From an uncultured Methanosarcinales archaeon (GTDB lineage Archaea > Nanobdellota > Nanobdellia > Woesearchaeales > CAZYIM01): a DNA stretch of 64,000 nt. The DNA lies in assembly GCA_964647565.1 (NCBI GenBank), contig CAZYIM010000009.1:1-64000 (forward strand), given 5' to 3'. Every line of letters begins with the position of its first letter. Positions within the stretch are counted from its first letter, which is position 1. Below, one piece after another: positions 1,454 to 31,135 of the stretch. The notes below the pieces were generated by a model. The model worked only from the letters and a program-made list of their open reading frames with translations. It ran no database searches and was not told the DNA's origin. Position numbers and translations under genes: made by a program.

Positions 1454-1467
1454 TTTGAGGGATAAAA

Positions 1468-5043: not shown

Positions 5044-5057
5044 ATATAGGACATATG

Positions 5058-5072
5058 GAAAAGATTTAAATA
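5058..5072 (+). promoter_or_regulatory. putative archaeal BRE-TATA promoter
   Basis: GAAAAGATTTAAATA about 50 nt upstream of the 5124 start; GGGGGG RBS follows. Confidence 0.5.
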
Positions 5073-5123
5073 CGTTATTGCCTTTCCAGTAGTTAATCAA
5101 ATAAGAGTTCGGGGGGATGGCAA

Positions 5124-8326: not shown

Positions 8327-8337
8327 GAGGGAACAGA

Positions 8338-10281: not shown

Positions 10282-10285
10282 AAAG

Positions 10286-11725: not shown

Positions 11726-11729
11726 GAAG

Positions 11730-13133: not shown

Positions 13134-13777
13134 CACTTGAAAAAGATGTAAAAGAAACAAAAAGCATGCTTGATGGCATGGTTATCAAAACAGATTTAAA
13201 AGCAAATAGATTGGAAAAAGAAAAAAAAATAAGGCAGTTGCTTGAACAAGCCAAAATAAAGGATCACGCGAGGGATTGGGGTACGGCTCAAGATCTTATT
13301 AATCAAGCCAGGAAGCTGGGTGCAGATGATAGTTTGTTTTTTGCAGATTCAATTGCCAAGTTCAGACAAAAACAATATGATCAGGCTATCGAAGCAATTG
13401 ACATGGCTCTATTATTAGATTCGCAAAATGAACAGTACTTCCTTCAACGAGGCCGTACTAAAATGGAAATGGGTCGATATAATGATGCGATTGAAGATTT
13501 TGATTTAGCGATAAAATATAAGCTTAGATATTGGGAAGCTTATTATAACAAAGGCCTGTGCTATGAAAAACTGAACGACACTGGCCAAGCATATGATGCA
13601 TATCACAGCATTTGGTATAACGGAGGGGAATACTCAGATACTGAACAAAGAATGGCAATGCTAAATAGAAAAAATAAAGAAAATCAGGACAAAATGGCGG
13701 AGTATATACATAACAATTCGTTCGAAGGTAAGCTAGAAAATGCCTTTAGGAAAATATTCAGAAGAAAAAAGAAATAA
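13130..13777 (+). CDS. leader-tagged TPR protein (member 4)
   Basis: MTLEKDVKETKSML leader; YNDAIEDFDLAI and AYYNKGLCY TPR motifs. Confidence 0.85.
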   Translation: MTLEKDVKETKSMLDGMVIKTDLKANRLEKEKKIRQLLEQAKIKDHARDWGTAQDLINQARKLGADDSLFFADSIAKFRQKQYDQAIEAIDMALLLDSQNEQYFLQRGRTKMEMGRYNDAIEDFDLAIKYKLRYWEAYYNKGLCYEKLNDTGQAYDAYHSIWYNGGEYSDTEQRMAMLNRKNKENQDKMAEYIHNNSFEGKLENAFRKIFRRKKK

Positions 13778-13778
13778 G

Positions 13779-14285
13779 ATGTCACTAGAAAAAGAGATCA
13801 AGAAATGGAAAGGTAAACTAAAGGATTTGGTTTTTAAGCTGAAACCTCCTGAAGAGGATCCAGTTGAGCGGGCAAGGAGGATCAGATTGGATAGCTTTAA
13901 GCATCATTATAGATTGGGTAAGAACAAACAGGAATTGAATGATCTTGATGGTGCTGTTGCTGAATATGTTAGAGCCCTTAAGTATGAACCTACTAATGTT
14001 GACTCATTACACAGGATAGGTAAAATCAAAATGCAACAGGAGGCTTGGGAGACTGCCATCCATTATCTAGATAGGGCGTTAAGACTGGATCCTGATCACC
14101 TAACAGCATATTTTGATAGAGGATATGCAAAAGCAAAATTAGGCGATGAGCAAGGCCAGCACAAAGATTATGAAAAAGGCTTGGAACTAAATCCTAATAT
14201 GAATGCAGCTACATCATTGGTTGCTGCTTCGAGAAAAAAAGAACAAGATATATTGGATGCCTTTGATGGCAAGAGGAGGAAATAG
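13779..14285 (+). CDS. leader-tagged TPR protein (member 5)
   Basis: start re-called at MSLEKEIKKWKGKL; ALRLDPDHLTAYFDRG TPR motif. Confidence 0.85.
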   Translation: MSLEKEIKKWKGKLKDLVFKLKPPEEDPVERARRIRLDSFKHHYRLGKNKQELNDLDGAVAEYVRALKYEPTNVDSLHRIGKIKMQQEAWETAIHYLDRALRLDPDHLTAYFDRGYAKAKLGDEQGQHKDYEKGLELNPNMNAATSLVAASRKKEQDILDAFDGKRRK

Positions 14286-14286
14286 T

Positions 14287-14817
14287 GTGGCATTGGAAGA
14301 AGAGATCAGCAAAACAAAAAAGTTGTTAGACTATATAGAAATAATCTCTCATGATAAAGATATTGAAAAATACTTACCAAGGACCTGGTTAATTGGACCT
14401 AAGGATAGGTCTAAATTGGCTTATTCAAAAGCTTACTATAAAAGGGTGGTGGATAAAACTTACAATGGCACTGACTTTAGCGGAATAGATGATCTAAATA
14501 TTTGTTTGGCTCTCAACCCATACCATGTCCAAGCTTTATATAGACGAGGAAAATTCAATTTAAAGCATAATCATTACCGCAAAGCTATTGCTGATTTCGA
14601 CAGAATAATTAACATAAATCCTAATTATGTAGATGTTTATTTACAACGATCTTTCGCAAAACATAAATTAGGTATTAGATGGGATGCAGAGGAAGATAGA
14701 AAGAAAATGTATGATATCATCAAGAAGAACGGTGGTAAGCTCCTTGGAATATCGAATAAAGCATTTTCAAAAATAATAAATGATGACGCAATGAGCGTAA
14801 TAAATAGAATAAAATGA
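14287..14817 (+). CDS. leader-tagged TPR protein (member 6)
   Basis: GTG start giving MALEEEISKTKKLL; AIADFDRIININPNY TPR motif. Confidence 0.8.
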   Translation: MALEEEISKTKKLLDYIEIISHDKDIEKYLPRTWLIGPKDRSKLAYSKAYYKRVVDKTYNGTDFSGIDDLNICLALNPYHVQALYRRGKFNLKHNHYRKAIADFDRIININPNYVDVYLQRSFAKHKLGIRWDAEEDRKKMYDIIKKNGGKLLGISNKAFSKIINDDAMSVINRIK

Positions 14818-15536
14818 CACTAGACCAAGAAGTACAGAAAATGAAGCAACTGCTAGATACTCTTGAGATGCATGTAATGTTGCCTTCTGAATCAGAAGAG
14901 AAAGATCCCATCAAAAAGTGGATGGATGAACGAGAATCCGTAAAAAAATTCATCGATACAATTAGTTTTTGGGTGACGGATTCTTATCTTGAAGGCATTA
15001 AGGCAGTTTTCAAAGAAATTCCTGAAAATAAAAATATTGTTGACTATAACTTTATTGAAACTGCAAAGCTCAAGGATATTTGGGTAGAAACTATGACTAC
15101 TTATTTAGAAGATCGCGTGCTGAAGTACTTCGGGATTAATGAGAAAGATGATCTAAAAACACCTATGTTGATGAAGTCTACAATAGGCCTTTCTTCACAC
15201 GACCTTAAAAATATCATAGATGAATATGGAAAAGACTACACTTTACAAAAGCATAATCTATTAACAGAACTATTAGAAGAAAAGATCACTAAAAGACTTT
15301 ATACTGATGTGGGTGCCCATCTAAATGATGAACATGTTGAAGATGTGATCAAATGCATAGAAAGTCTGGATGCCACGCATTTCTTAGATGTTAAGAATAT
15401 GTCAATAAAGGATGCTCTTGAGATGTATGATCTATATGCAGAAAGTAATGGATTATTTACTCCAAAATATATCAAGGATCATTTTGTGGATAAGAAACAA
15501 GAGATCCCTAAATATCTTACAATTATTCCGCCTTAG
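14814..15536 (+). CDS. leader-tagged hypothetical helical protein (member 7)
   Basis: MTLDQEVQKMKQLL leader; ATGA overlap with the previous gene. Confidence 0.8.
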   Translation: MTLDQEVQKMKQLLDTLEMHVMLPSESEEKDPIKKWMDERESVKKFIDTISFWVTDSYLEGIKAVFKEIPENKNIVDYNFIETAKLKDIWVETMTTYLEDRVLKYFGINEKDDLKTPMLMKSTIGLSSHDLKNIIDEYGKDYTLQKHNLLTELLEEKITKRLYTDVGAHLNDEHVEDVIKCIESLDATHFLDVKNMSIKDALEMYDLYAESNGLFTPKYIKDHFVDKKQEIPKYLTIIPP

Positions 15537-16254
15537 GCTTCTTGGCCAGGTTCCATAGAATCTTGAAATATTTTCTGTACGCATTAGCGATCTCCTGGCT
15601 CCTTATCAGGATGATCAATGGCTCTTTTGACCACAGAATCAGGCTTACATACTCACCACATATGGATGTGGTTACAGGACTGTCAAATTCTCTTGGCAAT
15701 AGTCTTGCTTCTGTATAGGGTAATTTGTTAAGAAAATGCATCCTGTCCAATGCATCGGCATTGTATATATGATCCATCTGTATCTTCAGTTCTTTTCTCC
15801 TGTTATGGTAATTAGTCAGGAAAGGACCTATCATCTTGGCCACATCAGCTATGACGCCATAGGTATAGATGGTCTGTTTTTGCTTTAAAAATAATTCAAG
15901 CATGTTTTTTGTTGCTCTAATGCCTTCGAATATCTTAGCTTCGCTCTTTTTAGACATCTGTTTTGCAAGTGCAAGCTGCGGCAGGGCTTTAGAAAGCTTG
16001 TCTTCTTTTTCTTTGAGCATGTCCATCAGCCGCTCTGGATCGCTGGCTTCAAAGTATTTGGTCTTATCCTTTAGAATATATGCCACAAGACCTTTGTCTA
16101 TCAGTCTTTTCAATGCATCATAGACATTAGTCCTATGTACGCCGCTCTTTTCTGATATCTTGCCTGCAACTGAACAACCCAGTTCTAGAAGTGCCAGATA
16201 TACTTTGGCCTCGTTGTCCGAAAGACCGATTTCTTGAAGGATTTCTTCATCCAT
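15523..16254 (-). CDS. TrmB-family transcriptional regulator
   Basis: LQEIGLSDNEAKVYLALLELG...HRTNVYDALKRLIDKGLV wHTH; start taken at MDEEIL. Confidence 0.9.
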   Translation of the reverse strand: MDEEILQEIGLSDNEAKVYLALLELGCSVAGKISEKSGVHRTNVYDALKRLIDKGLVAYILKDKTKYFEASDPERLMDMLKEKEDKLSKALPQLALAKQMSKKSEAKIFEGIRATKNMLELFLKQKQTIYTYGVIADVAKMIGPFLTNYHNRRKELKIQMDHIYNADALDRMHFLNKLPYTEARLLPREFDSPVTTSICGEYVSLILWSKEPLIILIRSQEIANAYRKYFKILWNLAKKPKAE

Positions 16255-16345
16255 TTTTAGTTCTTTTAATGGTATGATAGTTTTAATAATTTCCGGAAAA
16301 AACTTCGGAATGTAAAAAAACATCCGTTTTCATCACTGTATGATG

Positions 16346-16423: not shown

Positions 16424-17686
16424 GTGTCGTTAGATGGCGATATCGAGAGAGCGAGGAAAGACTTGCAAAGTATGGATTTCAACACGAGATCCATAGACAA
16501 AGTCAAGAGCAAAAAGGAACTTGAGATAGAAAAGAAACACAGTTATGGGTTTCGGACATTGATGGGGAACAATGGCCGTACAGGATATGCTCATTTCCAG
16601 ACGCCTAAAGAAGATCAAACTTGGTTATTACTTCTTCAAACTAGCTATGGTTTAAAGGGTTTCAAAAAGTTAATGGATGAAAAAGTCTTTGATGCCAAAC
16701 TTCATGAAAAGATGGATTTCATCCAATTCTCAGCACCTAATATAGCTGCAGGATATAACCGTATTTTCTCAGTAGGAGATAACTTTATCAAGATATTTAA
16801 TTTCAAGGGAGACTTGATCAATAATGTGATTTTGGATTCTGGAATGCCTATAAAATTCGATCCTGTTTACTATAATAATAGTCTGCTAATTCACGGTATG
16901 GAAACTGAAATGCAGTGCTTTGACAGGGATGGAGAGTTAAAATGGACATATGATACTGGATGTCACGGTAGAAAAAATCCGCCTACCATGTTGAACGATG
17001 CTATTTATCATATCAAGGGCACATCAGATACAATTGCTGTTGCCCTTAATTATAATGGAAAAGAGATTTGGAGCTATGACAATGTGAAAGATGTTGAATC
17101 ATCTCCCGTAGTTATTGGTTATGGAAAAGATAGAAAAATCATATATGGAACACAGGATGGACTCATCGCTTTGAATCATAAAGGTAAATTGAAGTGGAGA
17201 TTCAAAACAGAAAAACCAAGCGAATGGATGAACAGGAGACCACCGACCTGCACATTTAAGGAAGACAAGCTTTTCTATTGTATGCCTGAAAGAAATAAGC
17301 TCTATTGCGTGAATCCTAAAAAGGGAAAATTACTTTGGGAAACAAATATTCCAATGAATGAAGAAGAGTTTGATTATCCTCCATCTGTCCTGGATAATCG
17401 TCTTTTTATGCCAGGATATGGAAAAGTGACAGCTTATGAGATTCAGAAAAAAGGACTGAAAAAACTCTGGGACGTTAATGTGGAAGAAGGGCAGTGTACA
17501 ACACCCACCATCATGTATGGAGGACGAGTAATCATGTTTAAGAACTTTCTAAAAAAAGCAACTTTTAGTGATGACAACAAGCTGAGCTTAGTTATTGATA
17601 ATGAAAGCAAGCCGCTTGACAAATCAGATGTTGATATTGCAGCATTGCCAATGAGTATCGGAATAGACAAACACCTTATTGCATAA
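16424..17686 (+). CDS. leader-tagged PQQ/BamB-like beta-propeller (member 8)
   Basis: GTG start, MSLDGDIERARKDL; NNGRTG, CFDRDGELKW, GKLKWRF and GKLLWE motifs. Confidence 0.85.
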   Translation: MSLDGDIERARKDLQSMDFNTRSIDKVKSKKELEIEKKHSYGFRTLMGNNGRTGYAHFQTPKEDQTWLLLLQTSYGLKGFKKLMDEKVFDAKLHEKMDFIQFSAPNIAAGYNRIFSVGDNFIKIFNFKGDLINNVILDSGMPIKFDPVYYNNSLLIHGMETEMQCFDRDGELKWTYDTGCHGRKNPPTMLNDAIYHIKGTSDTIAVALNYNGKEIWSYDNVKDVESSPVVIGYGKDRKIIYGTQDGLIALNHKGKLKWRFKTEKPSEWMNRRPPTCTFKEDKLFYCMPERNKLYCVNPKKGKLLWETNIPMNEEEFDYPPSVLDNRLFMPGYGKVTAYEIQKKGLKKLWDVNVEEGQCTTPTIMYGGRVIMFKNFLKKATFSDDNKLSLVIDNESKPLDKSDVDIAALPMSIGIDKHLIA

Positions 17687-17687
17687 A

Positions 17688-18947
17688 ATGCCACTTGAAA
17701 AAGACATTGAAGGACTGAGAAAAAGTCTGAGAAGCATAGAGTTTAGCACAAGAAGAATAGATAAAGAACAGAGTAGAAGAGAACTTAAGATAGAAGAAAA
17801 AAATAATTTTGGATTTAAAACCTGGATGGAAAACTTTGCACGAACAGGATATTCTAATTTCCAAACATCTAAAAAAGAGGGTGATTGGCTACTTATTTTC
17901 CAAACAACCAATTATCTATTTGGCTATAAAAAACTGTTTTCAGATCAACTCTTTAAGGTCAAGCTTTCTGAAAAGATGGATTTTTTTGATTATTTGGTTC
18001 CAAACCTAGCTGCAAGTTACAACAGAATATTTTGTGCAGGACACAACTTTCTGAAGGTCTTTGATTTCAAGGGTAATGAAATAAACAGCATTTTACTGGA
18101 GCAAGCAATGATACCTAATAGGGAAGATCCTGTTTATTATGAAAACAGCCTGATAATAACTGGTTTTGATAACATGATGCACTGTTTTGATAGGGATGGA
18201 GAGTTAAAATGGCAGTATGACACCGAGGTTCAGGGTAGAAAAACACCTCCTACCATGACCAATGATGCTATCTATCACATAAAAAACTTGGCTAAAAGGT
18301 TAGCGGTTGCTATTGATTATAATGGAAAGGAACTCTGGACTTTTGATAAGATCGAGAAACTCGAATCATCTCCAGTAATCTACAAAAGAGGGTTTCAACA
18401 ATATATAATCTACGGAACACAGGATGGATTGATAGCGCTAGATAAAAAAGGAAGATTAAAATGGAGATTCCAGACTGATAAACCTCAGGAATATAGTAAA
18501 AGACGTCCTCCCACGTTAATGAATGAAAAGATATTCTATTGTATGCCTGAAAGAAACAAGATATGCTGTGTAGATGCACGTAAAGGTAAACTGCTTTGGG
18601 ATGCTAATGTTCCTATGAACGAAGAAGAGTTTGATTATCCTCCATCTGTCACAGAAGAACGTTTATTTATGCCAGGTTACGGCAAGATAACTGCCTACAA
18701 GATCCAGAAAACGGGGTTAGACAAACTCTGGGATGTAGAAGTGGGAGAAGGAAACTGCACAACACCAGCTATTGCGTATGGAGGGTATGTTATTATGTTT
18801 CGGCATAATCCAACAAAAAAAAGTTTCAATATGGATCGAAAAATGATCCTGGTATTTGATAAACTTGATGAAGGAATTGAAAAGATGGAATATAATATAT
18901 CTGCATTACCTATAACAATAGGAGTAGACAAACACCTTATTGAATAA
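17688..18947 (+). CDS. leader-tagged PQQ/BamB-like beta-propeller (member 9), close paralog of member 8
   Basis: start re-called at MPLEKDIEGLRKSL; identical blocks such as PMNEEEFDYPPSV and FYCMPERNK. Confidence 0.85.
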   Translation: MPLEKDIEGLRKSLRSIEFSTRRIDKEQSRRELKIEEKNNFGFKTWMENFARTGYSNFQTSKKEGDWLLIFQTTNYLFGYKKLFSDQLFKVKLSEKMDFFDYLVPNLAASYNRIFCAGHNFLKVFDFKGNEINSILLEQAMIPNREDPVYYENSLIITGFDNMMHCFDRDGELKWQYDTEVQGRKTPPTMTNDAIYHIKNLAKRLAVAIDYNGKELWTFDKIEKLESSPVIYKRGFQQYIIYGTQDGLIALDKKGRLKWRFQTDKPQEYSKRRPPTLMNEKIFYCMPERNKICCVDARKGKLLWDANVPMNEEEFDYPPSVTEERLFMPGYGKITAYKIQKTGLDKLWDVEVGEGNCTTPAIAYGGYVIMFRHNPTKKSFNMDRKMILVFDKLDEGIEKMEYNISALPITIGVDKHLIE

Positions 18948-18948
18948 A

Positions 18949-20256
18949 ATGTCGCTGACAAGAAACATCAGGAATCTTAGGAAAGAAACAGACGGTTTTG
19001 AATTCACAAAAGTAAATAAAAAAAGACCATTTTGGCAAAGAGCATTGATGTGGGGAGGGGGAGCTGTATTATTTCTAGGTATAAGCATAACGGCCAGCGT
19101 TTTCATAATGAAAAACATGCTGGGTTATGAGAAACCGCAGTCTCAACAAGAAGTTGTGCCACCCCCAATTGAACCTAAAGTTAAAACAACTGTAGTAAAA
19201 GACACGCTTGAGAAAATAGTTGAAGAAGAAAAAGAACCTGAACTGATCAAGCCAACATTTGAAGTATTAAGAGCACCAGCAGGAACAGAAGACCTGATTA
19301 CCGATCCGTTTGGAAATTTCTACATCCTGACAAAAACCAATGCAGGAACAAAGTTAGAACAATACAAAGGTTCAACATTTTGCAAATATGCTTCTATACG
19401 AAAAATAATGAACCTAGAAAAAGGAGAAATATTCGGCGGCTTTGATTTTAAAGGGATAGGATATTATTATCGTATATCAAATATTGAAGATATACCTTAC
19501 GAAACAGGCAGTTTTAATCTAAACATATCAAATTTTGAAATGACTAATCCGAGTTATGTTAAGAAAATTAGTAAAAAAATCACTTATAACAATGGTAAGG
19601 ACAGAAGTGAAGATTATACATTACCCAAATCATACCCTAATAGTTATGAAGCTTTATCAGCTCCAAAACTGGTAGATGGAAAAGTGTCGCCTAAAGGTAA
19701 TAATTATATATTAATACAGTTAGATCGGAAAAAGCGTCTTGCAACAAAATGGGGACGAGAAAGTGGTTCTATAACTGAAGAGTATTTTGCCAGCTTTTTA
19801 TTATTTGATAAACTAGGAAATTTAATAAAAACCAATTATGAAAATAAAGAGAAACATTTTCTTAGTTCAGAATATCCTGATTTTTCAAATGCCAGAATTT
19901 CAACGTGGGATGGAAAAAGAGTTAATGTATTAAAATTGTCAACACTAGGTATTTTTATTTATGATGAATTTTGGGAACTTCAGGAAGGTTTTGGCAAATT
20001 TGGTAATTCAATTGGACAATTTATACGTCCACAAGATATAGCAATTAGTCCCAATAACAAGATCTATGTTGTTGATACAGGCAACAATAGAATTCAAAAA
20101 TTTAGCTCAACTGGCAATTTTCTTAAAAGTTTAGGTGAGTATGGCGCCAACCCAGGTCAATTCGACAATCCTACAAGGATTGTTGTGGATCAGAATCAAA
20201 ACATCTACGTCTATGACAAGGGCAACAACAGGATACAGAAAATAAGCAACTGGTAA
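18949..20256 (+). CDS. leader-tagged single-TM NHL-repeat protein (member 10)
   Basis: start re-called at MSLTRNIRNLRKE; TM segment; PQDIAISPNNKIYVVDTGNNRIQKF NHL repeat. Confidence 0.85.
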   Translation: MSLTRNIRNLRKETDGFEFTKVNKKRPFWQRALMWGGGAVLFLGISITASVFIMKNMLGYEKPQSQQEVVPPPIEPKVKTTVVKDTLEKIVEEEKEPELIKPTFEVLRAPAGTEDLITDPFGNFYILTKTNAGTKLEQYKGSTFCKYASIRKIMNLEKGEIFGGFDFKGIGYYYRISNIEDIPYETGSFNLNISNFEMTNPSYVKKISKKITYNNGKDRSEDYTLPKSYPNSYEALSAPKLVDGKVSPKGNNYILIQLDRKKRLATKWGRESGSITEEYFASFLLFDKLGNLIKTNYENKEKHFLSSEYPDFSNARISTWDGKRVNVLKLSTLGIFIYDEFWELQEGFGKFGNSIGQFIRPQDIAISPNNKIYVVDTGNNRIQKFSSTGNFLKSLGEYGANPGQFDNPTRIVVDQNQNIYVYDKGNNRIQKISNW

Positions 20257-20261
20257 TTAAA

Positions 20262-21404
20262 ATGCCTCTAGAAAAAGAAATAAAAAAATGGAGAAAAAGA
20301 CTTGATATGTATGAATTTAAAAAACCCGAACCATTTTGGAAAAGAGCTTCGAGAACTGCACTTTTTATCGGGAGCAGTTTCATGTTAAGTTTTATGATTA
20401 TGAAAAATTTTGGAAATGATCCAACACAATACAACAAAGAACAACAAACTCAAATTAACTCAAGTGAACAAATTGGAAAAAAAGAAATTATCAATCCTAC
20501 CTCTGAAAATCTTAAGATAAGAGTAATTCAAGAGACAATAATCCCTCCTTCTGAACCATTGGAAATGAGATCTGATTTATTAGGAAACATGTACTGTATT
20601 TTCAAAGGCAAAGAAAAAGAAAGAATTGTAAATGTATATGATGGTATTAGGTTTAAACCTCAAACTATAATGAAACGCAACGATCTAATATGGGGAGGTG
20701 TGGATCGAGAAATGTTCAGGTATTTTTATTATGCTAATGAAGTTGGAGCAAACAGGATTGATTATAAGAAATATAATATTTATCTTTTAAAAAATAATAA
20801 AAATGGAAAAAAAATAACACATCATAAAATAGTCAGCGAAGAGTATGGGTACTGGAATGAAAAAGAAGAATTATTCCATTTGTTGGATGGCCGCTCTGAT
20901 TCGATCGGCAATAACTATATTATTGCATTAGTAAATTATAAAACAAATCATAGCTATGTCAATAGAACTCTTTCTATCAAAACTGATAACATGGGTGAAC
21001 TAATTAATAAAAAATTTGTTGTGCCAGATGTAGATAGAAGTTCGAAATTAAAAATAGGTAATGACAACAAATTATATGTTCACAGTCCAAATAAATCCAT
21101 TCATGTTTTCGATAATGACTGGAACTACCTAAATCAAATCGGATCCCCTAATGGAAATGGTGACGGACAATTTATGAAACCTCAAGATATCACAATAGGT
21201 CCTGATGGAAGTGTCTATATAGCAGATACCAGCAATCACAGGATCCAGAAGTTCGATCCTGACGGAGCATTTATTGCCAAATTCGGAGAATATGGTTCTG
21301 GCAAAGGACAGTTCAACTACCCCGCAAGAATCACTGTCGACAAGAACAGCAACGTCTATGTCTATGACAAGGGCAATAACAGGATACAGAAGTTCAGGTT
21401 TTGA
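20262..21404 (+). CDS. leader-tagged single-TM NHL-repeat protein (member 11)
   Basis: MPLEKEIKKWRKRL; TM segment; PQDITIGPDGSVYIADTSNHRIQKF NHL repeat. Confidence 0.85.
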   Translation: MPLEKEIKKWRKRLDMYEFKKPEPFWKRASRTALFIGSSFMLSFMIMKNFGNDPTQYNKEQQTQINSSEQIGKKEIINPTSENLKIRVIQETIIPPSEPLEMRSDLLGNMYCIFKGKEKERIVNVYDGIRFKPQTIMKRNDLIWGGVDREMFRYFYYANEVGANRIDYKKYNIYLLKNNKNGKKITHHKIVSEEYGYWNEKEELFHLLDGRSDSIGNNYIIALVNYKTNHSYVNRTLSIKTDNMGELINKKFVVPDVDRSSKLKIGNDNKLYVHSPNKSIHVFDNDWNYLNQIGSPNGNGDGQFMKPQDITIGPDGSVYIADTSNHRIQKFDPDGAFIAKFGEYGSGKGQFNYPARITVDKNSNVYVYDKGNNRIQKFRF

Positions 21405-21406
21405 AA

Positions 21407-22435
21407 ATGGGACTTGAAGAAGAAATCAAGAAAACAAAAAGGAAATTACATAGCTTGAATATCGAAGTTATACCCAAAATGCCTGTTTATAAAAAAATAC
21501 CTAAAAGCTGGTTTTTATGGGGTGTAGGAATCTTATTTTTGAGCTTCTTGGGTTATACGGGCATCACTAAAATACCCTTCTCACAACCCAGTACAAAAAC
21601 GCCTGTAAGATCATCAACCTATAATCCCCCAAATGGCTCAGACCTTTATCAAAGGAAAACAGGCGATCTTTCGAAAATCGATCCCACTCCTGTAAAGATT
21701 GTAAACACGAAGAAAAAAAAAGATCTCTCAAAAATCAAACCTATATTCGAGGAAATCCCTATAAGGAACAAATATCAAACTAATTTGGCGGAAAACAATA
21801 TTGCTGCAGAATCTCCTTCTCGTTACTCTAGTAGAGAACTTGAAATTTATATGACCCAGGGAGCAAAACTTTCTAATCTTGGAAGATATGATGACGCATT
21901 GAATTACTATGACAGAGCACTAGCCATAGAGCCTAATAATCAGAAAATCCGAAGCAGTAAAGGCCTTGCACTTCTACGCCAGGGTAGTTCGCTTCAGAAA
22001 AAAGGAAAACTTGATTTGGGCATTGAAAAATTTCTTGATGCAAAAAAATTTCTTACAGATAAAAGTCCTGCAAATACAGGATTATATACTTGCTATCTTG
22101 ACAAAGGAATTGATGCATTTAACACTAAATCATTCCGGACTTCACTCGTTTCATTTAATAATGCTCTCAGATATCAATCAAATGGCGCCAAAGCAATGGA
22201 ACTTAAAGGTGCTGCCCTATTTTATCTGAATCAAATTAATGAATCTAAAACCTGGATTGATAGAGCTCTAAAACAAAAAGAAACAGATTTTGGCTATTAT
22301 TATCAGGGTCATATCCATTTCAAACTAGGTAATGTAATAGAAGGTGGTAATTCCTGGATAAAAGGCAGAGCAATTGACCCTACGGGATATTGTGCAAGAC
22401 CTGGTAAGTCAACAGACATACGTAAAGCCCAGTAA
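21407..22435 (+). CDS. leader-tagged single-TM TPR protein (member 12)
   Basis: start re-called at MGLEEEIKKTKRKL; TM segment WFLWGVGILFLSFLGY; YDDALNYYDRALAIEP TPR motif. Confidence 0.85.
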   Translation: MGLEEEIKKTKRKLHSLNIEVIPKMPVYKKIPKSWFLWGVGILFLSFLGYTGITKIPFSQPSTKTPVRSSTYNPPNGSDLYQRKTGDLSKIDPTPVKIVNTKKKKDLSKIKPIFEEIPIRNKYQTNLAENNIAAESPSRYSSRELEIYMTQGAKLSNLGRYDDALNYYDRALAIEPNNQKIRSSKGLALLRQGSSLQKKGKLDLGIEKFLDAKKFLTDKSPANTGLYTCYLDKGIDAFNTKSFRTSLVSFNNALRYQSNGAKAMELKGAALFYLNQINESKTWIDRALKQKETDFGYYYQGHIHFKLGNVIEGGNSWIKGRAIDPTGYCARPGKSTDIRKAQ

Positions 22436-22463
22436 CCTCTCTACAAAGGATTGAAAGATTAAA

Positions 22464-22955
22464 ATGCCGCTTGAACACGATGTACAAAGTATGAGGGAAT
22501 TGCTCAAAACTCTGAATATAGAAATCAAGAAAGGCCCTTTGACTGAAGAAGAGTATCGTGAATTAATTGATCAAGCTTTAGAAGAAGTTAGACTAAAGAA
22601 AGAAGTTGTGGTAAAAGAGCTTGAAAGACTAAAAAAAGGTGACTTTGAAAGCAGGTTAACTGATTTAATACTAAAAGAGAAATATTCGCAGATGAGAAGT
22701 GTCCTGATAGCTGCAAACGATAGATTTGGAAGACATGGAAAATATAGTATAATTGGAAGAAAGCTGACAACTCTTGAGAAATTAAGATATAAAATTCCTA
22801 AAAAAGTGGAAGAATCAAACATTTATGATTTGGAAGAAAAGATTGTTGCGAAGATCAAGAAGTTAAGAGGAAGAAATGTGGACGTGCATTATCTAGAAAA
22901 AGAACTGAACAGACTCGATCCAGATTATGAAATAAAGGGAAAGCCTTCAAAATAA
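22464..22955 (+). CDS. leader-tagged hypothetical helical protein (member 13)
   Basis: MPLEHDVQSMRELL leader. Confidence 0.8.
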   Translation: MPLEHDVQSMRELLKTLNIEIKKGPLTEEEYRELIDQALEEVRLKKEVVVKELERLKKGDFESRLTDLILKEKYSQMRSVLIAANDRFGRHGKYSIIGRKLTTLEKLRYKIPKKVEESNIYDLEEKIVAKIKKLRGRNVDVHYLEKELNRLDPDYEIKGKPSK

Positions 22956-22965
22956 TTATAGAAAA

Positions 22966-23823
22966 ATGCCTCTAGAAGAAGACATAAAAAAAACAAAGCA
23001 ACTCCTCGAAGGTCTCGACATCCAACTCAAGAAGGAGATATTGGCAGCTGGCGCTATTAAATTGACTGAAAAGGATCTGATGGTTGAGAAGGCTCTCAAT
23101 CATTATCTTGAAAATTCTTCACAAGAGATAAGCAATAGTTGTATTGGGAAGAGCATTAATGCTATGGATGCATTCTATTTTACATTCAAAGATAAATCAG
23201 AAGAAAAGTTCGAATTGACTGATAGCATCTATCACAAGAATGAAGAGCTAGAAGAGATTACTTTTCACAGTCTTAAGAAATTCCATGAGAAAGTTAATCC
23301 TGAATTTCTCATATTGATGGAATCAATCTATGATGAAATGGATCAACTTCTTCCAGAATATGCAAAGGAGTTTGACAATCTGCTAAATCCTACCAACAAA
23401 GAAGAAGAGAAGAGTTATCCTGGAATGGATTTCAAGAAATGGACTGAGATGGCGGGAAAAGAGGAAAAGGGAACCTATACACCAGATTTTATGAGGAATC
23501 CATTACCACCCATTCAAACGCATAGCCCATTCCCAACTAAACCAAAAGAAGAGCCTTTTGCCTATAAGCCTGACTTCATGAAGATGAAAATACCTCAGAT
23601 TTCAAATGAAAGTCATATAGACGAGAAATATACGCCCTTGCTCGATTTGTTACATGAATCTGTATCTGATAAAGAAATGACTGTTATGAAACTCCATACC
23701 GAACTGTCTAAAGTAACTCATGACAATTCAATAACTATGGCAAGGCATCTGCAGTTCAGACAAGCCAGCCAGCTATTGCAACCATTTTCAGATCTGGATA
23801 TCATACTTTATCTTATCAGGTAG
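22966..23823 (+). CDS. leader-tagged hypothetical protein (member 14); frame stays open past the TAG to 23952
   Basis: MPLEEDIKKTKQLL leader; 42 further sense codons after the TAG at 23821-23823. Confidence 0.75.
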   Translation: MPLEEDIKKTKQLLEGLDIQLKKEILAAGAIKLTEKDLMVEKALNHYLENSSQEISNSCIGKSINAMDAFYFTFKDKSEEKFELTDSIYHKNEELEEITFHSLKKFHEKVNPEFLILMESIYDEMDQLLPEYAKEFDNLLNPTNKEEEKSYPGMDFKKWTEMAGKEEKGTYTPDFMRNPLPPIQTHSPFPTKPKEEPFAYKPDFMKMKIPQISNESHIDEKYTPLLDLLHESVSDKEMTVMKLHTELSKVTHDNSITMARHLQFRQASQLLQPFSDLDIILYLIR

Positions 23824-23948
23824 GCTGTGACTGAAGATGTTAAACTAGATCCCATAAAACTGAACAAGATGAGCAGGCAGGACATGATCAGCACATTCCT
23901 AAGCCATGAAGGCTATTGGATGCAAAGAGAGTTCGGGCTGGTGAAGAA

Positions 23949-25247
23949 ATGAGTCTAATCGAAGATATTTGGGAAGCGAAGAGAACCTTGGAATCGCTAG
24001 TAATAAACGTGTATGAAACAATAGAAATAACACCCAATCCTGAAGATCTTTCCCTTGAAAAGAAAATGGACTTCGGATTTCCAACAAAGGGAGGTAACTT
24101 TGCTAGAACAGGTTTTGTGGATTTCAGCACAAAAGAGCCTTCAGAGACCATGGTGCTGTTTCTGGCAACAAAGATAAGTGAGGGAACCTCTCTTTTCGCA
24201 TATAAGCCGAATCCTAAGCCAGAACTCATCTGGACTATGCCACTAGAAAAGGATTGGATAGGATCTGAATTTGTTTCCAAAAAAAATGTAGCTGTCGGAT
24301 ACAACAGGATTTATGCTATAACCCAACATCTGAAATCGTGGTTGAACATCCTTGATTTCAAGGGAAATCATCTTGAGCGAGTTCAACTCGATTACGTTGC
24401 AGCCAGATATTCCCACCCAATGGTTTATGGTCATGACAGCCTTTTGTTATCATCGCAAAAAAATATGTATTGTTATGACAGGGATGGCAAGCTGAAATGG
24501 GAGACTGAACATCCTGCAGCATTTAGTTATCCACCAACAATCGGAAAAGATGGAATCTATTATGTTTCAGACAGAGGTACAGTATCTGCAGCCTATAATC
24601 TGGATGGTACAAAAAAGTGGATTGTTCAGCATAGGGATGGAGAAATGCCATTCATAACTGCTTATTCAAAATCATCACCAATACTGTTTAATGACATGGC
24701 AATCTATGGATTATGGAAAGGAGTTGTTGCACTTGATAGAAAAACAGGTCAACAAAGATGGAAATTCAATGTAAATAGTAATTCGGATCATGATTCAACA
24801 GTTCCAGCCCTATATGACAATAAGATATTCTATAGATTCTGGTCTGTCAGCGATGAAAGACTCATCTGTCTGGATGCAAGAGATGGTAGAAAACTCTGGG
24901 AAACAGGGGTTAGAGATAACAATGACAAACCACCGGTTATTGACCAGGGAAGAATATTTCTTCCTCAAGCTCGTTCAGTAGCTGGCTATAACCTGACAGA
25001 GAGAGGAATTAATTCAAAGTTTAACTTGAACATAGATGTACATAATAATTATATTAATGGCCTTGCAGTACTTGAAGACTTTCTGGCTGTTGGCATAGAT
25101 TGCATAAAGACAATCTTTGTTGATGTTAGCAAGGCAAATGGGGAGTGCAAGTTAACTGAACTAGGAGAAGGAAACTACTCAATTCTAGAGCAGGGAAACG
25201 CTACAAATCCGATAATAATAAGATATGATAAGGAACTAGTAAAGTAA
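23949..25247 (+). CDS. leader-tagged PQQ/BamB-like beta-propeller (member 15)
   Basis: start re-called at MSLIEDIWEAKRTL; GNFARTG, CYDRDGKLKW and LDARDGRKLW motifs. Confidence 0.85.
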   Translation: MSLIEDIWEAKRTLESLVINVYETIEITPNPEDLSLEKKMDFGFPTKGGNFARTGFVDFSTKEPSETMVLFLATKISEGTSLFAYKPNPKPELIWTMPLEKDWIGSEFVSKKNVAVGYNRIYAITQHLKSWLNILDFKGNHLERVQLDYVAARYSHPMVYGHDSLLLSSQKNMYCYDRDGKLKWETEHPAAFSYPPTIGKDGIYYVSDRGTVSAAYNLDGTKKWIVQHRDGEMPFITAYSKSSPILFNDMAIYGLWKGVVALDRKTGQQRWKFNVNSNSDHDSTVPALYDNKIFYRFWSVSDERLICLDARDGRKLWETGVRDNNDKPPVIDQGRIFLPQARSVAGYNLTERGINSKFNLNIDVHNNYINGLAVLEDFLAVGIDCIKTIFVDVSKANGECKLTELGEGNYSILEQGNATNPIIIRYDKELVK

Positions 25248-25248
25248 G

Positions 25249-26643
25249 ATGTCACTTGAAAAAGAAGTTCGGAAAACAAAGAAAAAGCTTCAAACATTAG
25301 AAATCGAGGTCAAGATATCAGAGTTAGAATTAGAGAAAAAATTCAATCTTGGTAATAAGACCTATCATGGAGATTATTCCAAAACCAGATCAGTTGATAT
25401 TAGAACTTCATCCGACGAAAGCGATCTTTTAGTATTATCAAGAAATTTGGACAACGAAATTAATGTATATCGACCGTTACCAGACTTGAATGTTCAGCCT
25501 TTTTGGGGGATTAATATGGAAACAAATAAAGAAGGATGGGCTGGTCTTCAAACATCCACTATAGGTATTGGTTATAACAGGCTTTTTATTGTTACTCATG
25601 CTTATATGCAGATAGAAAGCCCTGAGGATGTCAATGCCTGCAAATCTTTTTTGAACATTTATGATTTCAAGGGCAACCTTTTACATAAAAAAAATATTGA
25701 TAAAGAGTTAGGCACCATATATGGTAAGGAAATTTTCGGAGGACCTAGTGTTGTTTATAAAAATAATTCTTTAATTGTTCATACAGCTGCAAAATATGTT
25801 TGTTTTGATAGGGATGGCAATAAGAAATGGGATTTTACAAAATCAAAGAATAATGAAAAATTCAGGATCCTGTATCATCCAGAAATGACCGAGGATGCAA
25901 TTTATGCACATTATATGTTTGAAGATGGGAATACCTATAAGGTTGCCAAACTGGACTATGATGGACAGATATTATGGGAATCACCAGGAGCGCATAGTTT
26001 CGGACCATTTATCTACAAAGATCTTTTTATCTTTTACGAGAGTAAGAATCTTGTTGCTTTAGACAAGGATGGAAAACGAGAATGGAAATATACTCTGGAT
26101 AAAGGGAAATTCTATTCAAATGTTGTTCTTCACAAAGACAAGATACTAGTTTTGATAGATCCCAATCCTAAAAATAGCATAAAAATCTACGGATATGATG
26201 AAACAGTAGTTCATGATTTTTTAAGCATAGATGCCATTACCGGAAAAACTGTCTGGAAAGATCAATTAATCCTTCCAGGAAAATATAGTTTCGCATCAAG
26301 TATAAACAATAAGATATATGCAAATACTTCAGATGAAAATGATAAATATGAATCAACATATGAGTATATATTCACAGAAACTGGAATAAGCGAAGGCTGG
26401 CGTCGCAAACTGCCTATAGCAATCCATTATAGCGAAATAGCAATGAGGAATAATTTAATGGCCTACAATGCGGGCATATTAAGTACGCTAAAAGAGCCAT
26501 ATACAACTGTATTATTAGATATGGAAAAAATCAGAAAAAATTCACCTCCTCCATTAAAAATAAGTGAAGATACATATGCATTGATAAAGAAATGCGATCG
26601 TCAACCTTTGATAATAGAATGCGACAAAGAGCTACTCGATTAA
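25249..26643 (+). CDS. leader-tagged PQQ/BamB-like beta-propeller (member 16)
   Basis: MSLEKEVRKTKKKL; GYNRLF, CFDRDGNKKW and IDAITGKTVW motifs. Confidence 0.85.
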   Translation: MSLEKEVRKTKKKLQTLEIEVKISELELEKKFNLGNKTYHGDYSKTRSVDIRTSSDESDLLVLSRNLDNEINVYRPLPDLNVQPFWGINMETNKEGWAGLQTSTIGIGYNRLFIVTHAYMQIESPEDVNACKSFLNIYDFKGNLLHKKNIDKELGTIYGKEIFGGPSVVYKNNSLIVHTAAKYVCFDRDGNKKWDFTKSKNNEKFRILYHPEMTEDAIYAHYMFEDGNTYKVAKLDYDGQILWESPGAHSFGPFIYKDLFIFYESKNLVALDKDGKREWKYTLDKGKFYSNVVLHKDKILVLIDPNPKNSIKIYGYDETVVHDFLSIDAITGKTVWKDQLILPGKYSFASSINNKIYANTSDENDKYESTYEYIFTETGISEGWRRKLPIAIHYSEIAMRNNLMAYNAGILSTLKEPYTTVLLDMEKIRKNSPPPLKISEDTYALIKKCDRQPLIIECDKELLD

Positions 26644-26644
26644 G

Positions 26645-27364
26645 ATGTCACTTGAAGAAGATGTACAACAAGCTAGGCGACAGTTAAGAAGATTAGAAAT
26701 TAAGATATATGAAGCTCCAATTGAAATACCTAAAAAAATAAAAAAAAAGAAAAGAAGATTAAAAGTTTGGCTCACAAGTCTGGTTTCGATTGTTGTACTG
26801 GCCACAGGAGGATATTTTGGCTACAACCCTGCTACGAACTTGATCGATAACATCAAGGAGAACAGACTGATTACAAGTATAGAAAATTCAAATCCAACAA
26901 TCGGCAGAAAGGAATCTATCATCAGCACCAATCCTAGAGATTATAAGACAGTACGGGAGCTCCAGATGTTCTGGATAAACCAAGGCAACTCATATCTTGA
27001 AGAATTCAAGTTTAAACAGGCACAATCCTGCTACGACAAGGTAAACGAAGTTGAGTTTGATGAAGAAACTTGGGATGGCATGACTAATGGTGATGTCTTG
27101 GGCTCAGCTAATTCGATGCTCAACTCTGCAACTGCTGTGGGTTTGTATATATTCACAGACTGGCTATTGGATGAGGGCGTACCAAAACTGAATTCAAGAC
27201 ATGAAAAGCTAGCGCATCTTGCCTCTAAGTTCGAGGAAGGGAACGATTATGAAAGCTCATTATACTATTACAAAAAAGCTTACACATTGAATAAAAAACA
27301 ATCCTACAAAGACGGAATAGACAGAACACAAAAAAAATTCAAAGAACAACAAGATGCCACTTGA
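26645..27364 (+). CDS. leader-tagged single-TM TPR-like protein (member 17)
   Basis: MSLEEDVQQARRQL; TM segment; SLYYYKKAYTLN. Confidence 0.8.
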   Translation: MSLEEDVQQARRQLRRLEIKIYEAPIEIPKKIKKKKRRLKVWLTSLVSIVVLATGGYFGYNPATNLIDNIKENRLITSIENSNPTIGRKESIISTNPRDYKTVRELQMFWINQGNSYLEEFKFKQAQSCYDKVNEVEFDEETWDGMTNGDVLGSANSMLNSATAVGLYIFTDWLLDEGVPKLNSRHEKLAHLASKFEEGNDYESSLYYYKKAYTLNKKQSYKDGIDRTQKKFKEQQDAT

Positions 27365-29141
27365 AGAAGATATTTATCGTATCAGGAAAAAATTAAAGAG
27401 ATTAGATATTAAGCTAGTCAAGAAAACAAGTAAAACAAGAAGAAGTTTGACCTACATTACAGCAGCATTGTTATTAATCAGCGGAGGATATGCTAGCTAT
27501 AAAATTGGTGGCCCAATAATAGAAAACACTCAAAAAAAAGGATTTATCAATAATATTCTAGATAAGTATCCAGAAATACTAGAAAAGGAAAAGATTGCTA
27601 ATGACAATCCTCGGGAATTGCATAGCGTATTTGATGTTATATGGTTCTGGCATCAACAAGGAGATTCTTGCCTTTCAGAATTTGAACTGAAAAAATCTAG
27701 TTACTGCTACAATAGGATTCTCGATGTAAAAATCGAATATTGGCAATCCGGAAAAGAACCTGCTCCTGGCGAAGTTGGTTTTTTTAACTGGAACTATTCA
27801 CACATGGGCCGTAAGCATGCAGAAAAATACTTGAGCTTCATAAGCGAACTTAAAAAAAAAGATCTTCCTGAATTTGAACATAGATATGAAAAGATGACCT
27901 TTATCGCGGATGAATGGGTTAAAATAGAAGAATTACAGGATGCACTTTATTATTATGAAAAAGCATTTGAGTTAAATAAATCTGAAGAGTATAAACAAAA
28001 TATCGACAAGGTTCTTGAACTGATCAAAATACAAAACGCGAAAATAAACGCTGAACTAAAAGCTCAGTCTGAGAAGGAAAAAACAAGCAAAGGTTTACAA
28101 ACTGAAGAGAGTAAAAGTCTTAAAACAAATCCGCCGCCTGCTGTAAAAGAGAAAAAGCCCATAGTAACTCCAAAGAAAATAATTCTTGATCCTAATGAAG
28201 AGAAGCTGTTCTATATGGTAGATGTTCCAAAAAAAGAAATGCCTCACATCCCCTCACCTTCATGGAGACGCAAGGATGGCGATATTAAAGCTATTTATAT
28301 GCTGAATGAAAAGGGAAAATCTCGCAAGGATGACTATCTAGTAATCGCTATGGATGCTAATATAGAAGCGTTAACTGTTTTCAACAATGAATTATATATG
28401 GCACACCAGTCGAGCTCAGTGGAACCCTATACTGATTTTGAGGGGGATATAATCGTTAAAATCATAAATAAAGAAGGTCAAGTCGTGAGGATCCCTATTG
28501 CAGATAGAAGGAACTTAACCACAACAACCCTTGTTAGCGGCGAAATAGATCATCCAAGAAATTCTATACATGCTATTCAAGAATTCAACAATCAATTGCT
28601 GGATGGAGGTTCATATCCCTGGATTTTCAAAGCATTGGACTCTAATGGACACGCCATTAACAGAAAGTTCTTCAACACAGGACTTATATGGATTGATGAT
28701 ATTGCGGGGCTGGGCAGCACTCTTTACTATTCAGGAAGCTTGCCCGCTGAGATCTGCAGATTAGAGAATAATAATGGAGAGTTGGAGAAAAGAACAATCT
28801 TAACAAGACCCGACAAATACATACATGAACTCGAAGTATTGAACAATGAGCTATATGCAGCAATAAGCAATACTGCCTCTACCAAAGGCCAGATTCAGAT
28901 TATAAAGGCTGTAAATGCTGCTGGGCAGACAGTCAGCCAGCTGATAGCATCAAGAAACTCAACCATTTACGCCCTTGCTGTTCTTAACAATGAGCTATAT
29001 GATGCAGGTTTCTATAAGAAAATCATCAAGACCATAAATACAGAAGGCAAAGTTGTAAATCATACTATTCGGGATCTGCATGAAACAGTCTATGCGATGT
29101 GTGTTGGAAAGGTAAACTTCCAACCGCAAGTAAAGAATTAA
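27354..29141 (+). CDS. leader-tagged single-TM TPR-like protein with C-terminal repeat (probable propeller) domain (member 18)
   Basis: MPLEEDIYRIRKKL; N-terminal half resembles member 17; repeated L.V[FL]NNELY units. Confidence 0.8.
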   Translation: MPLEEDIYRIRKKLKRLDIKLVKKTSKTRRSLTYITAALLLISGGYASYKIGGPIIENTQKKGFINNILDKYPEILEKEKIANDNPRELHSVFDVIWFWHQQGDSCLSEFELKKSSYCYNRILDVKIEYWQSGKEPAPGEVGFFNWNYSHMGRKHAEKYLSFISELKKKDLPEFEHRYEKMTFIADEWVKIEELQDALYYYEKAFELNKSEEYKQNIDKVLELIKIQNAKINAELKAQSEKEKTSKGLQTEESKSLKTNPPPAVKEKKPIVTPKKIILDPNEEKLFYMVDVPKKEMPHIPSPSWRRKDGDIKAIYMLNEKGKSRKDDYLVIAMDANIEALTVFNNELYMAHQSSSVEPYTDFEGDIIVKIINKEGQVVRIPIADRRNLTTTTLVSGEIDHPRNSIHAIQEFNNQLLDGGSYPWIFKALDSNGHAINRKFFNTGLIWIDDIAGLGSTLYYSGSLPAEICRLENNNGELEKRTILTRPDKYIHELEVLNNELYAAISNTASTKGQIQIIKAVNAAGQTVSQLIASRNSTIYALAVLNNELYDAGFYKKIIKTINTEGKVVNHTIRDLHETVYAMCVGKVNFQPQVKN

Positions 29142-29142
29142 A

Positions 29143-30468
29143 ATGCCACTTGAAGACGACGTAAAAAAAACAAAGAAAAAACTGCATAGTCTCAGCTATA
29201 TTATCGATGAAACTCTTGGCATTGAACAGAAGATCGGCTGCTGCTGGCCAACAGACAGGGGCAACTTCGAGCGGACAGGTTTTGTAGATGCCAGCGTACC
29301 TAAAGAAGATTCAGATTTGGTGCAGTTAGTTTTAACTAATAGTGGCTTTGTAACTGCATTTAAGGTCGATAAGAAATCCGATAAATTATGGAGTAAAGAG
29401 CTGTTCCATTATAATGAAACTCGAGGAAAGTCGAGGGGGCCCTATAGCAATCTAGCTATTGGATATGATAGGATATATTGTGTCTTGGATGGATTTATGA
29501 TTGTTTTAAATTTCAAAGGAGATATTATCAATAAAAAAAAAGAATTTAAATTTAAAAATCGCATTGAAAAAAATTGTGATATTGTTTATAAGAACAACAG
29601 ACTTATTGTAAGTTCACAAAAAGGCTTATCCTGTTTTGACAGAGATGGAAATAGGGAGTGGGATTTTAAAGATCTGAATACAAAAATCACATTACCTACG
29701 ATTACAGATGATGCCATCTATTTTAACTCAGGAGATCCTAAAAAAAGAAATAAAGTTGTTAGTTATGTTGGGGCCATCGATTTGAATGGAAAAGAAAAAT
29801 GGAGATTTGATTTTGATAAAAGGTTCTTTGAAAAAAAAGGAGATTGGAATCCTGACATATTACTCAAATCTTCATCTTTGATTTTTAAAGACTACATAAT
29901 TTTCAGCTATAATAGTGGAATATTTACATTAGACAGAGAAGGGAATTTTATATGGGAATTTACTCCAAAGGATATACCTGCAATCTTAGGCCCTCCCACC
30001 AAACTAACTCTCAGGGGCAATACAGTCATAAGTTACCTGCCTGTAACCAATACTCTGTATTTTCTTAATGCAAAGACAGGAACTATATTGCATGATACTA
30101 TTAAAGACGCAGGCATACATTCGTATATTCCAATTCATTCTGGCAAAATTTATGTTAAAAATATTTATAACCATAATTCCTTGACTGAGTTTGAGATTAA
30201 AGATAAGCGGGTTGAGGAAAGATGGACAATAATTTCAGACAATGATGTTGGCCAGCCAATCATTAATGATAAGTATGTGATTTTTAATGCGGGGATGTCA
30301 ATCAAGGGAGACTTCATGATATTAGACAGAACAGATTTAGAAGGAGATTATAAAATCAATACATGGAGTAACCGGATCAGCATACCTAAAGATAAATATT
30401 CAGTATTAAAGTTTGTAAGACACAGTGATGTTGTACTTGTAAAGGCCAATAAAAAACTCTTGTACTAA
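29143..30468 (+). CDS. leader-tagged PQQ/BamB-like beta-propeller (member 19)
   Basis: MPLEDDVKKTKKKL; WPTDRGNFERTG and CFDRDGNREW motifs. Confidence 0.85.
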   Translation: MPLEDDVKKTKKKLHSLSYIIDETLGIEQKIGCCWPTDRGNFERTGFVDASVPKEDSDLVQLVLTNSGFVTAFKVDKKSDKLWSKELFHYNETRGKSRGPYSNLAIGYDRIYCVLDGFMIVLNFKGDIINKKKEFKFKNRIEKNCDIVYKNNRLIVSSQKGLSCFDRDGNREWDFKDLNTKITLPTITDDAIYFNSGDPKKRNKVVSYVGAIDLNGKEKWRFDFDKRFFEKKGDWNPDILLKSSSLIFKDYIIFSYNSGIFTLDREGNFIWEFTPKDIPAILGPPTKLTLRGNTVISYLPVTNTLYFLNAKTGTILHDTIKDAGIHSYIPIHSGKIYVKNIYNHNSLTEFEIKDKRVEERWTIISDNDVGQPIINDKYVIFNAGMSIKGDFMILDRTDLEGDYKINTWSNRISIPKDKYSVLKFVRHSDVVLVKANKKLLY

Positions 30469-30469
30469 A

Positions 30470-30502
30470 ATGCCGCTTGAAGAAGATATCAACAATCCAT
30501 AG
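30470..30502 (+). pseudogene. orphan leader stub MPLEEDINNP*
   Basis: ATGCCGCTTGAAGAAGATATCAACAATCCATAG begins after a 1-nt gap following the stop of member 19. Confidence 0.75.
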
Positions 30503-30540
30503 AAAAATTTATATCTTTCAAAGGTATTGATCAAAACGAG

Positions 30541-31098
30541 GTGGTCAAAATAGATAAAGAGGTTAGCATTGAAGAAGTCACTAATTACAGGCCTGGCACC
30601 AGGAACCTAATCATGTCAAGCCTAGAATCTGAAATCGAAAAGCATGAGAACTTATTTAGACAGCATGGTTGGCAGTGTAAGACAATTCGTGATCCCAAAA
30701 GTCCGACTGACTATGAACAGCTTGCAACTATTGTGAATGACGATGATGCAGAAGACACCATCTATCTTGTTTTGGTCAATGATGATGCTCATGCCTCAAG
30801 GATGAGAGATATCAGCACCCAAATGTATGAATATCTTGAAAAATTTGACTCTGTAAACCATTGGCACATATTTCATGAAGATGTCCGAGTGCCTCCTGGA
30901 AATGAAACAGTCAAACTTCACGGGGAATATACAGAAGCATACCAACCCCCTCCTTTAAACAAGAAAACTTACGAAAAGCCCGAGTTTAGAATAGTCAATG
31001 AGAATGATGAGGCCTGCAGGAACCGCCATAAGAGAATAATGAATAAGTTCAAGAATAGAGGAAACTCAAACGGTTTTGGTGCAGATATGCGCTTCTAA
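30541..31098 (+). CDS. hypothetical protein
   Basis: 185 aa ORF with an upstream GAAAAATTTATAT TATA-like element. Confidence 0.65.
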   Translation: MVKIDKEVSIEEVTNYRPGTRNLIMSSLESEIEKHENLFRQHGWQCKTIRDPKSPTDYEQLATIVNDDDAEDTIYLVLVNDDAHASRMRDISTQMYEYLEKFDSVNHWHIFHEDVRVPPGNETVKLHGEYTEAYQPPPLNKKTYEKPEFRIVNENDEACRNRHKRIMNKFKNRGNSNGFGADMRF

Positions 31099-31135
31099 TA
31101 AAAAGATTTAAAAACTTCCAACCAAATATCCCTTT

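Follow-up and report, generated by a model that had tools for sequence, protein, structure and literature searches.

The question raised by this locus is why an array of genes with a common start ends in one more such start that leads into no gene. We addressed it in a window of 64,000 nt (C9:1-64000), the whole stretch of DNA that was analysed, which carries the archaeal genes TrmB, CarS, NucS and Nre. It belongs to a 2.68-Mb genome (G000), 87% complete and unusually large for its order, which is the sole genome of its family among those compared. The archaeal genes, TATA boxes lying some 30 nt ahead of start codons and relatives with small genomes suggest a DPANN-type archaeon.

The array and its genomic setting

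Nineteen leader-bearing genes, all in the same orientation, were confirmed at 9859-30468. Their leaders span about 19 codons with the consensus MxLExDIxKxKxxLxxLxI, and their bodies are of TPR, PQQ-like, NHL or unknown type. A gene for a TrmB-family regulator on the reverse strand (15523..16323) splits the array into block 1 (members 1-7; 9859..15536, + strand), whose end overlaps the end of the TrmB gene and bears no stub, and block 2 (members 8-19; 16424..30468, + strand), which starts divergently from TrmB and is closed by the stub considered here. The array is preceded by a core operon (464..9846, + strand) that recurs in genomes G056 and G147 and encodes a 329-aa uncharacterised protein, an AAA ATPase, two further uncharacterised proteins, an LDH-like plus beta-propeller protein, a PP2C phosphatase and a Ser/Thr kinase.

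Within the order, the 329-aa protein, the AAA ATPase, the LDH-like plus beta-propeller protein and the kinase recur as an operon beside TrmB (L033/L067 in G056, L034 in G147, and L049-L058), and PP2C was seen in this operon here and in G056. Matches to the AAA ATPase were present in 22 of 400 other genomes of the order at E 1e-25; a related-locus search with the AAA ATPase as query returned nothing. No published description of the operon, the array or such a stub was found in searches of a mostly open-access literature. At least four more tandem gene families with common starts occur in the same genome, on contigs C1, C14, C23, C33, C36, C37, C41, C56, C68 and C69. The window also holds an acyltransferase gene (31494-32174) and a cluster for CDP-archaeol synthase, CDP-alcohol phosphatidyltransferase and phosphatidylserine decarboxylase (40541-42185), that is, lipid genes in a small-genome archaeon.

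A truncated leader at the end of the array

As the sequence-only reading had stated, an ORF of 10 codons (30470..30502, + strand) starts with ATG at 30470, encodes MPLEEDINNP and ends with a TAG whose last base is 30502. It lies 1 nt past the TAA of member 19 (29143..30468, + strand), the last intact member, in which a leader precedes a PQQ-like beta-propeller with Pfam hits below cut-off. The TAAaATG junction, said to be common to several members, does recur: in exact form and with the previous gene's own stop it is found at 3 of the 19 (members 9, 10 and 19), and a 1-nt gap to the preceding gene at 7 of 19. The start of member 18 (27354..29141, + strand) is the nearest to the stub, with the single mismatch over nt 1-20 that had been noted; past nt 20, members 3, 12, 14 and 19 are closer to the stub than member 18.

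The resemblance to the array was quantified with a DNA matrix built from the starts of the 19 members, on which the first 21 nt of the stub reached 28.5 bits, the highest score among all start-codon positions genome-wide; members scored leave-one-out reached at best 27.1 bits, i.e. the stub head is the nearest to the array consensus. Among 49,802 control positions close to the ends of other genes the best score was 9.2, so none attained 28.5 bits, and the background probability of such a head match is about 2e-12 per position. The stub is thus a true homologue of the array gene starts and not a chance resemblance.

The description of the stub as a 20th leader holds for the homology and fails for the length, as the stub corresponds to roughly the first half of a leader. 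Its head is intact over codons 1-7 (30470..30490, + strand), and a two-model estimate, leader followed by promoter, placed the breakpoint of leader likeness at nt 22-37 (5-95% range; median nt 29 = 30498), which gives a change-over zone from leader homology to promoter DNA at 30491..30506 (+ strand). Of the approximately 19 leader codons, the stub therefore retains the initial 7 to about 10, and the likeness is lost within the leader (nt 22-37 of about 57), not at its edge. Codons 8-14 in the stub frame are weakly leader-like in register, a score equalled by 3 of 292 TATA-aligned promoters, this being one of seven windows tried; codons 16-19 score lower than all 19 members. Neither the near-invariant Leu14 nor the basic residue at position 11 is present in the peptide, which has at position 10 a proline that never occurs there in the 19 members. 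A 10-bp, 90% inverted repeat at 30483-30517, with one arm in the stub and the other over the TATA box, is not stable and is probably due to chance, as 27 short pairs of this kind occur within 1.7 kb.

The promoter and gene downstream of the stub

The TATA-like element reported directly after the stub proved to be a strong promoter match for this genome. With a genome-trained promoter matrix, the BRE (an A-run) and TATA box of the next gene were located at 30498..30519 (+ strand; TTTATAT at 30508-30514), overlapping the stub stop codon, and scored 15.2, at or above 234 of the 319 training promoters and matched at 7 of 1,913,900 coding positions. The element stands 33 nt before the GTG at 30541, close to the genome mode of 30 nt, and the stub stop codon belongs to the upstream flank of the promoter.

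The gene served by it (30541..31098, + strand) is a stand-alone gene with a GTG start that encodes a 185-aa small alpha/beta protein of an unnamed family. Eight remote homologues were recovered, six of which start at most 7 residues from the GTG; inspection by eye revealed no leader on any of the eight, including two longer ones. The family has conserved RxGTxNL, FDS and HG motifs. Neither Pfam nor Foldseek provided a name for the protein, with no Foldseek match at E 0.001 (model pLDDT 75.5). The 185-aa call recurs on seven contigs from several sources, and its 90% cluster holds no longer form. Word-index searches with the downstream frame and with member 19 gave no non-self homologue at E 1e-15, Rfam gave one chance-level hit, and no terminator-like site was found.

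The leader as a predicted coiled-coil tag

Hydrophobic residues occupy leader positions 3, 7, 10, 14 and 17, and this heptad pattern is found on TPR, PQQ-like, NHL and unknown bodies alike. With a helix predicted from the heptad pattern, the leader resembles a coiled-coil peptide tag, and its behaviour is that of a tag on proteins and not of a site in DNA. Many of the weak leader-profile hits belong, by motif, to what we take to be A/V-ATPase subunit D. In a comparison picked after the fact, the leader profile matched the C-terminal helix of that subunit with an hhalign probability of 78.8 (P 1.6e-5). No subunit D or A/B of an A/V-ATPase was found in this 87% complete genome. We do not claim homology between the leader and subunit D, since a seryl-tRNA synthetase-like coiled coil scores as high and the similarity may be that of a generic coiled coil. 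Two genes ahead of the LDH-like gene in G056 (L067:2725-5216) start with heptad segments that are weakly leader-like (12.6 and 9.4 bits), and member 18 has a weak match to an array-like gene of G056 (BLASTP E 0.003).

Among described modules, the effector-associated domains (EADs) of NTP-dependent conflict systems, which the available text of PMC7159879 presents as small helical terminal modules on diverse effectors with lineage-specific distribution, offer an analogue for the leader, not for the stub. Like the EADs of that text, the leader is a small helical N-terminal module, as far as its helix is predicted, on diverse repeat proteins beside an operon for an NTPase, a kinase and PP2C; unlike them, it has only about 19 residues, and a copy on a core protein was not found. 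The best score among the 8 core proteins was 7.6 bits, compared with 18-37 bits for 18 of the 19 members. EADs are further marked by homotypic binding and by a copy fused to a core component; as no core protein carries a leader copy, we do not class the leader as an EAD.

Searches for related arrays and stubs

DNA searches of 40 relatives yielded only short matches of 34-59 nt. The leader profile gave weak hits in 62 of 400 genomes of the order (E 8e-4 to 0.047, at most two per genome), none of the 400 contained a leader array, and nine regions around N-terminal-looking hits turned out to be isolated coiled coils; two unpublished genomes, G244 and G303, count only in these order-wide tallies. 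Pattern scans, from which the records nearest this genome were perhaps excluded, returned two matches in metagenomes, both unrelated, and none in genomes. Ten of 20 related regions were examined gene by gene, as was one more, and all were scanned for the leader; no leader-like stub was present in 23 related loci. A region of G135 (L069:600-2140), seen as a repeated translation, has regular repeats resembling a CRISPR array.

We also inspected the other array ends of the same genome, scoring the DNA matrix on C1, C41 and C9 block 1 and the peptide motif on C23 and C33. No terminal stub was detected at these five readable ends; the arrays on C14, C37, C56, C68 and C69 run off their contigs and are not part of this count. 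In G147, three genes follow the LDH-like gene (L034:3899-7110), the first and third of which start near-identically over 24 codons at the DNA level, a start unrelated to the leader of the window. The last gene of this mini-array abuts TrmB, with no stub between them.

Assembly support and strain variation

The sequence-only reading had named an assembly chimera as a possible source of the stub. Contigs built separately from reads of runs X1 (record 8, 30193-31350) and X2 (record 16, 30196-31350) are unbranched and extend from member 19 past the stub and into the two genes that follow; at the junction, where their depth is about 5, they show no difference and no gap. Although the depth is low, the two runs appear to form a single data set, and other assemblies of array members contain frameshift disagreements, these separately built crossings make a chimera or consensus error extremely unlikely. 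Because X1 and X2 may themselves be the source sample, their agreement is better evidence against a mis-join than for a general occurrence of the junction. Runs X3 and X4 have hardly any coverage of the stub, and the comparison was of contigs, not raw reads, so that rare variants are dropped.

Among the matches listed (32 of 230 pieces, 24 of 99 loose ends), two joints of run X3 end in or near leaders, one linking 12656 to 13138 and the other 13809 to 27423. Each is a single contig with a short side of 20-21 letters and 3-4 times the depth of the organism, as is typical of other organisms, although proof of such an origin is lacking. A C>T change at 29432 in run X3 matches S97L in protein variant P0013, which indicates at least two strains. 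Member 14 (region 22966-23955) stops here at 23821-23823 (285 aa); its variant P0025 from another assembly has 328 aa, 43 more, reaches the start of member 15, and differs at two further sites just upstream of the stop. The early stop could be a strain-level pseudogenisation or a local consensus error at low depth, and it fits an array in decay or turnover.

Alternative explanations for the stub

Two known kinds of mobile array invite comparison. Shufflons and silent-cassette systems reportedly combine a constant N-terminus with exchangeable bodies (R64 PilV/Rci); a shufflon consists of invertible segments bounded by inverted sites and is accompanied by a recombinase. The present array resembles the R64 PilV/Rci shufflon in the common N-terminal piece before variable bodies, but here each body has its own leader and all are co-oriented, only short, chance-level inverted repeats and no conserved inverted crossover sites were found near the stub, and no recombinase was detected nearby. 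Integron cassette arrays (attI/attC, IntI) likewise consist of co-oriented, mostly unrelated genes split by a repeated element, with an attC-type single-strand hairpin at each cassette boundary. In contrast, the repeat here is protein-coding, is placed at the start of genes and has variable silent sites. It also lacks a hairpin: eight strands from seven junctions, examined for attC-type structure, fold no better than shuffles. An integrase is also absent from contig C9, a difference that is weak alone since CALINs lack one as well; archaeal integrons and CALINs are treated in the available part of bioRxiv 10.1101/2022.02.06.479319.

These comparisons bear on the proposal that the stub is an empty acceptor or seed, at whose head circles of leader-tagged genes would cross over by a Campbell-type or site-specific route, so that N genes come with N+1 heads of which the last is bodiless. 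This geometry is what is seen, the leader is common to unrelated bodies (TPR, PQQ-like, NHL and unknown), its identity is as high in 155 other pairs (30.0/57 nt) as in 16 pairs with homologous bodies (29.8/57 nt), the stub has the most consensus-like head, and two X3 joints end in or near leaders. Yet the closest body pairs (8/9 and 17/18) do have leader features in common, each member is separated from its nearest neighbour by 2-7 mismatches in nt 1-20, and no hairpin is apparent (z -0.8 to +1.4 against shuffles for the eight junction strands), the folds at all 20 starts being weak. Six tyrosine-recombinase (PF00589) matches exist in the genome, but none on C9, Pfam scans of 65 window proteins revealed no such enzyme, none of the five other readable array ends has a stub, and the X3 joints are the short-sided, over-deep single contigs noted above. 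Nor do silent sites set the leader apart. Same-codon use in leader codons 2-7 (0.529) exceeds codon-usage nulls (0.38-0.40; 0-2 of 1000-2000 simulations), and conserved codons in eight homologous body pairs show a silent-site identity of 0.48-0.55 that matches the leader head (0.53); as the leader varies at silent sites to the same degree as the bodies, common descent suffices. We therefore consider an empty acceptor site improbable, and this part of the sequence-only reading is not upheld. The same applies to its suggestion that leader DNA is the breakpoint for gain and loss, as the break falls within the leader, at nt 22-37 of about 57, and the DNA beyond it is non-homologous promoter sequence. 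Recombination between leaders would be expected to leave an intact chimeric gene and no stub, so the stub lends it no support; it is possible that, inside the array, ordinary homologous crossovers take place at leaders. That the terminal head is the retained seed or growing end of the array, where foreign or duplicated genes would gain the leader tag and join by recombination at a protein-coding head with no dedicated recombinase, is doubtful; so is the gene-capture system, working by peptide tags and coupled to an AAA ATPase/kinase/phosphatase machine not described before, that such an end would mark.

If the leader had once been in frame with the 30541 gene, as a member 20 since split by a one-base loss near codon 8, the downstream frame should carry leader sequence. 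That frame is indeed open over 20 codons (30481..30540, + strand), one base (-1) out of step with the stub, a length of open upstream frame found in just 22 of 292 promoter-headed genes. However, its positions 10-19 score -8.4 on the leader profile, compared with 6.0-19.2 for 18 members (member 15 left out), and 14-19% of random 10-mers score as well; the open stretch is a canonical promoter, the homologues begin at the GTG, the 185-aa call is repeated on seven contigs with no longer form, and the spanning contigs contain no indel. With its own BRE-TATA promoter and its leaderless homologues, the 30541 gene is unlikely to be such a frameshifted fusion. A selected micro-gene, whose peptide or translation would be useful as a decoy for the leader's partner or in clearing reinitiating ribosomes before the promoter, would account for a head that is intact and the best of its class and for a junction geometry that suits reinitiation, but the loss of Leu14 and of the basic residue 11, the proline at position 10 and the absence of a counterpart at other array ends and in the 23 related loci leave us sceptical of it. 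A short piece of a member 18-type start duplicated or converted into this site, with no gene lost, would explain the single mismatch in 20 nt to a gene 3.1 kb upstream; this we regard as very unlikely, given that members 3, 12, 14 and 19 are nearer past nt 20 and that an inherited junction would place the start exactly where it lies, 1 nt behind a stop.

Deletion as the probable origin of the stub

In our assessment the best reading, and a reasonably probable one, is that the stub is the remnant of a terminal 20th member removed by ordinary deletion; of the two origins offered by the sequence-only reading, the scar of a lost member is thus retained and the acceptor is not. Of the 20th member, the deletion would have spared the first 22-37 nt, which would thereby have come to lie against the upstream flank of the next promoter; further DNA was perhaps lost with the remainder of the gene. 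The leader's Lys-Lys-Leu codons and the BRE-TATA region are both A-rich, and their resemblance, a putative microhomology, probably favoured the join; the weak leader likeness of codons 8-14 is in keeping with this. The start would have been spared by its position, wedged 1 nt behind the stop of member 19, where a cut just inside the next gene harms nothing. Since the head has not decayed, the event was probably recent, and since no array member has an identical first 21 nt, the parent gene is gone or has since changed.

Ribosomes finishing member 19 may reinitiate on the stub and produce the 10-residue peptide. In Haloferax, according to the available text of PMC10666635, a native gap of +1 nt supports reinitiation, which a gap of 22 nt abolishes; by this measure the 10-mer may be made, and coupling over the 38 nt to the GTG at 30541 is unlikely. 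No function would be expected of the peptide, which lacks Leu14, has proline at position 10 and covers half of the leader's predicted coiled-coil helix.

Deletion at the ends of tandem gene arrays leaves gene remnants in the form of 5' pseudogene fragments. The stub is like such a remnant in its intact start at a normal junction, the abrupt end of homology, the join to unrelated DNA and the presence of other array decay; nothing essential differs, and the stub is recognisable because 19 neighbours have its start. Several observations speak against a scar. Of the 20 heads, that of the stub is the closest to the consensus, an outcome that has a chance of about 1 in 20 and would also fit selection or a donor role; the silent-site identity of codons 2-7 above the codon-usage nulls makes some DNA-level homogenisation possible; and the 20 open upstream codons (22/292) and the two X3 joints near leaders also count against it. 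The undeleted state, with a 20th member, was not found among the relatives (40 + 400 genomes) or the read-derived contigs (depth about 5).

Read as a deletion scar, the stub would be a small, clean sign that the tagged-gene array loses members and still turns over, and it would illustrate one way in which an archaeal promoter can become fused to an A-rich coding head. Were the terminal head a growth point after all, it would represent a recombinase-free way to tag genes and recruit them into a protein complex. Of greater importance than the stub are the array and its AAA/kinase/phosphatase operon. It is this context that offers the better lead: 19 genes with one coiled-coil-like tag, lying behind an operon (AAA ATPase, LDH-like propeller protein, PP2C, kinase and TrmB) found repeatedly within the order.
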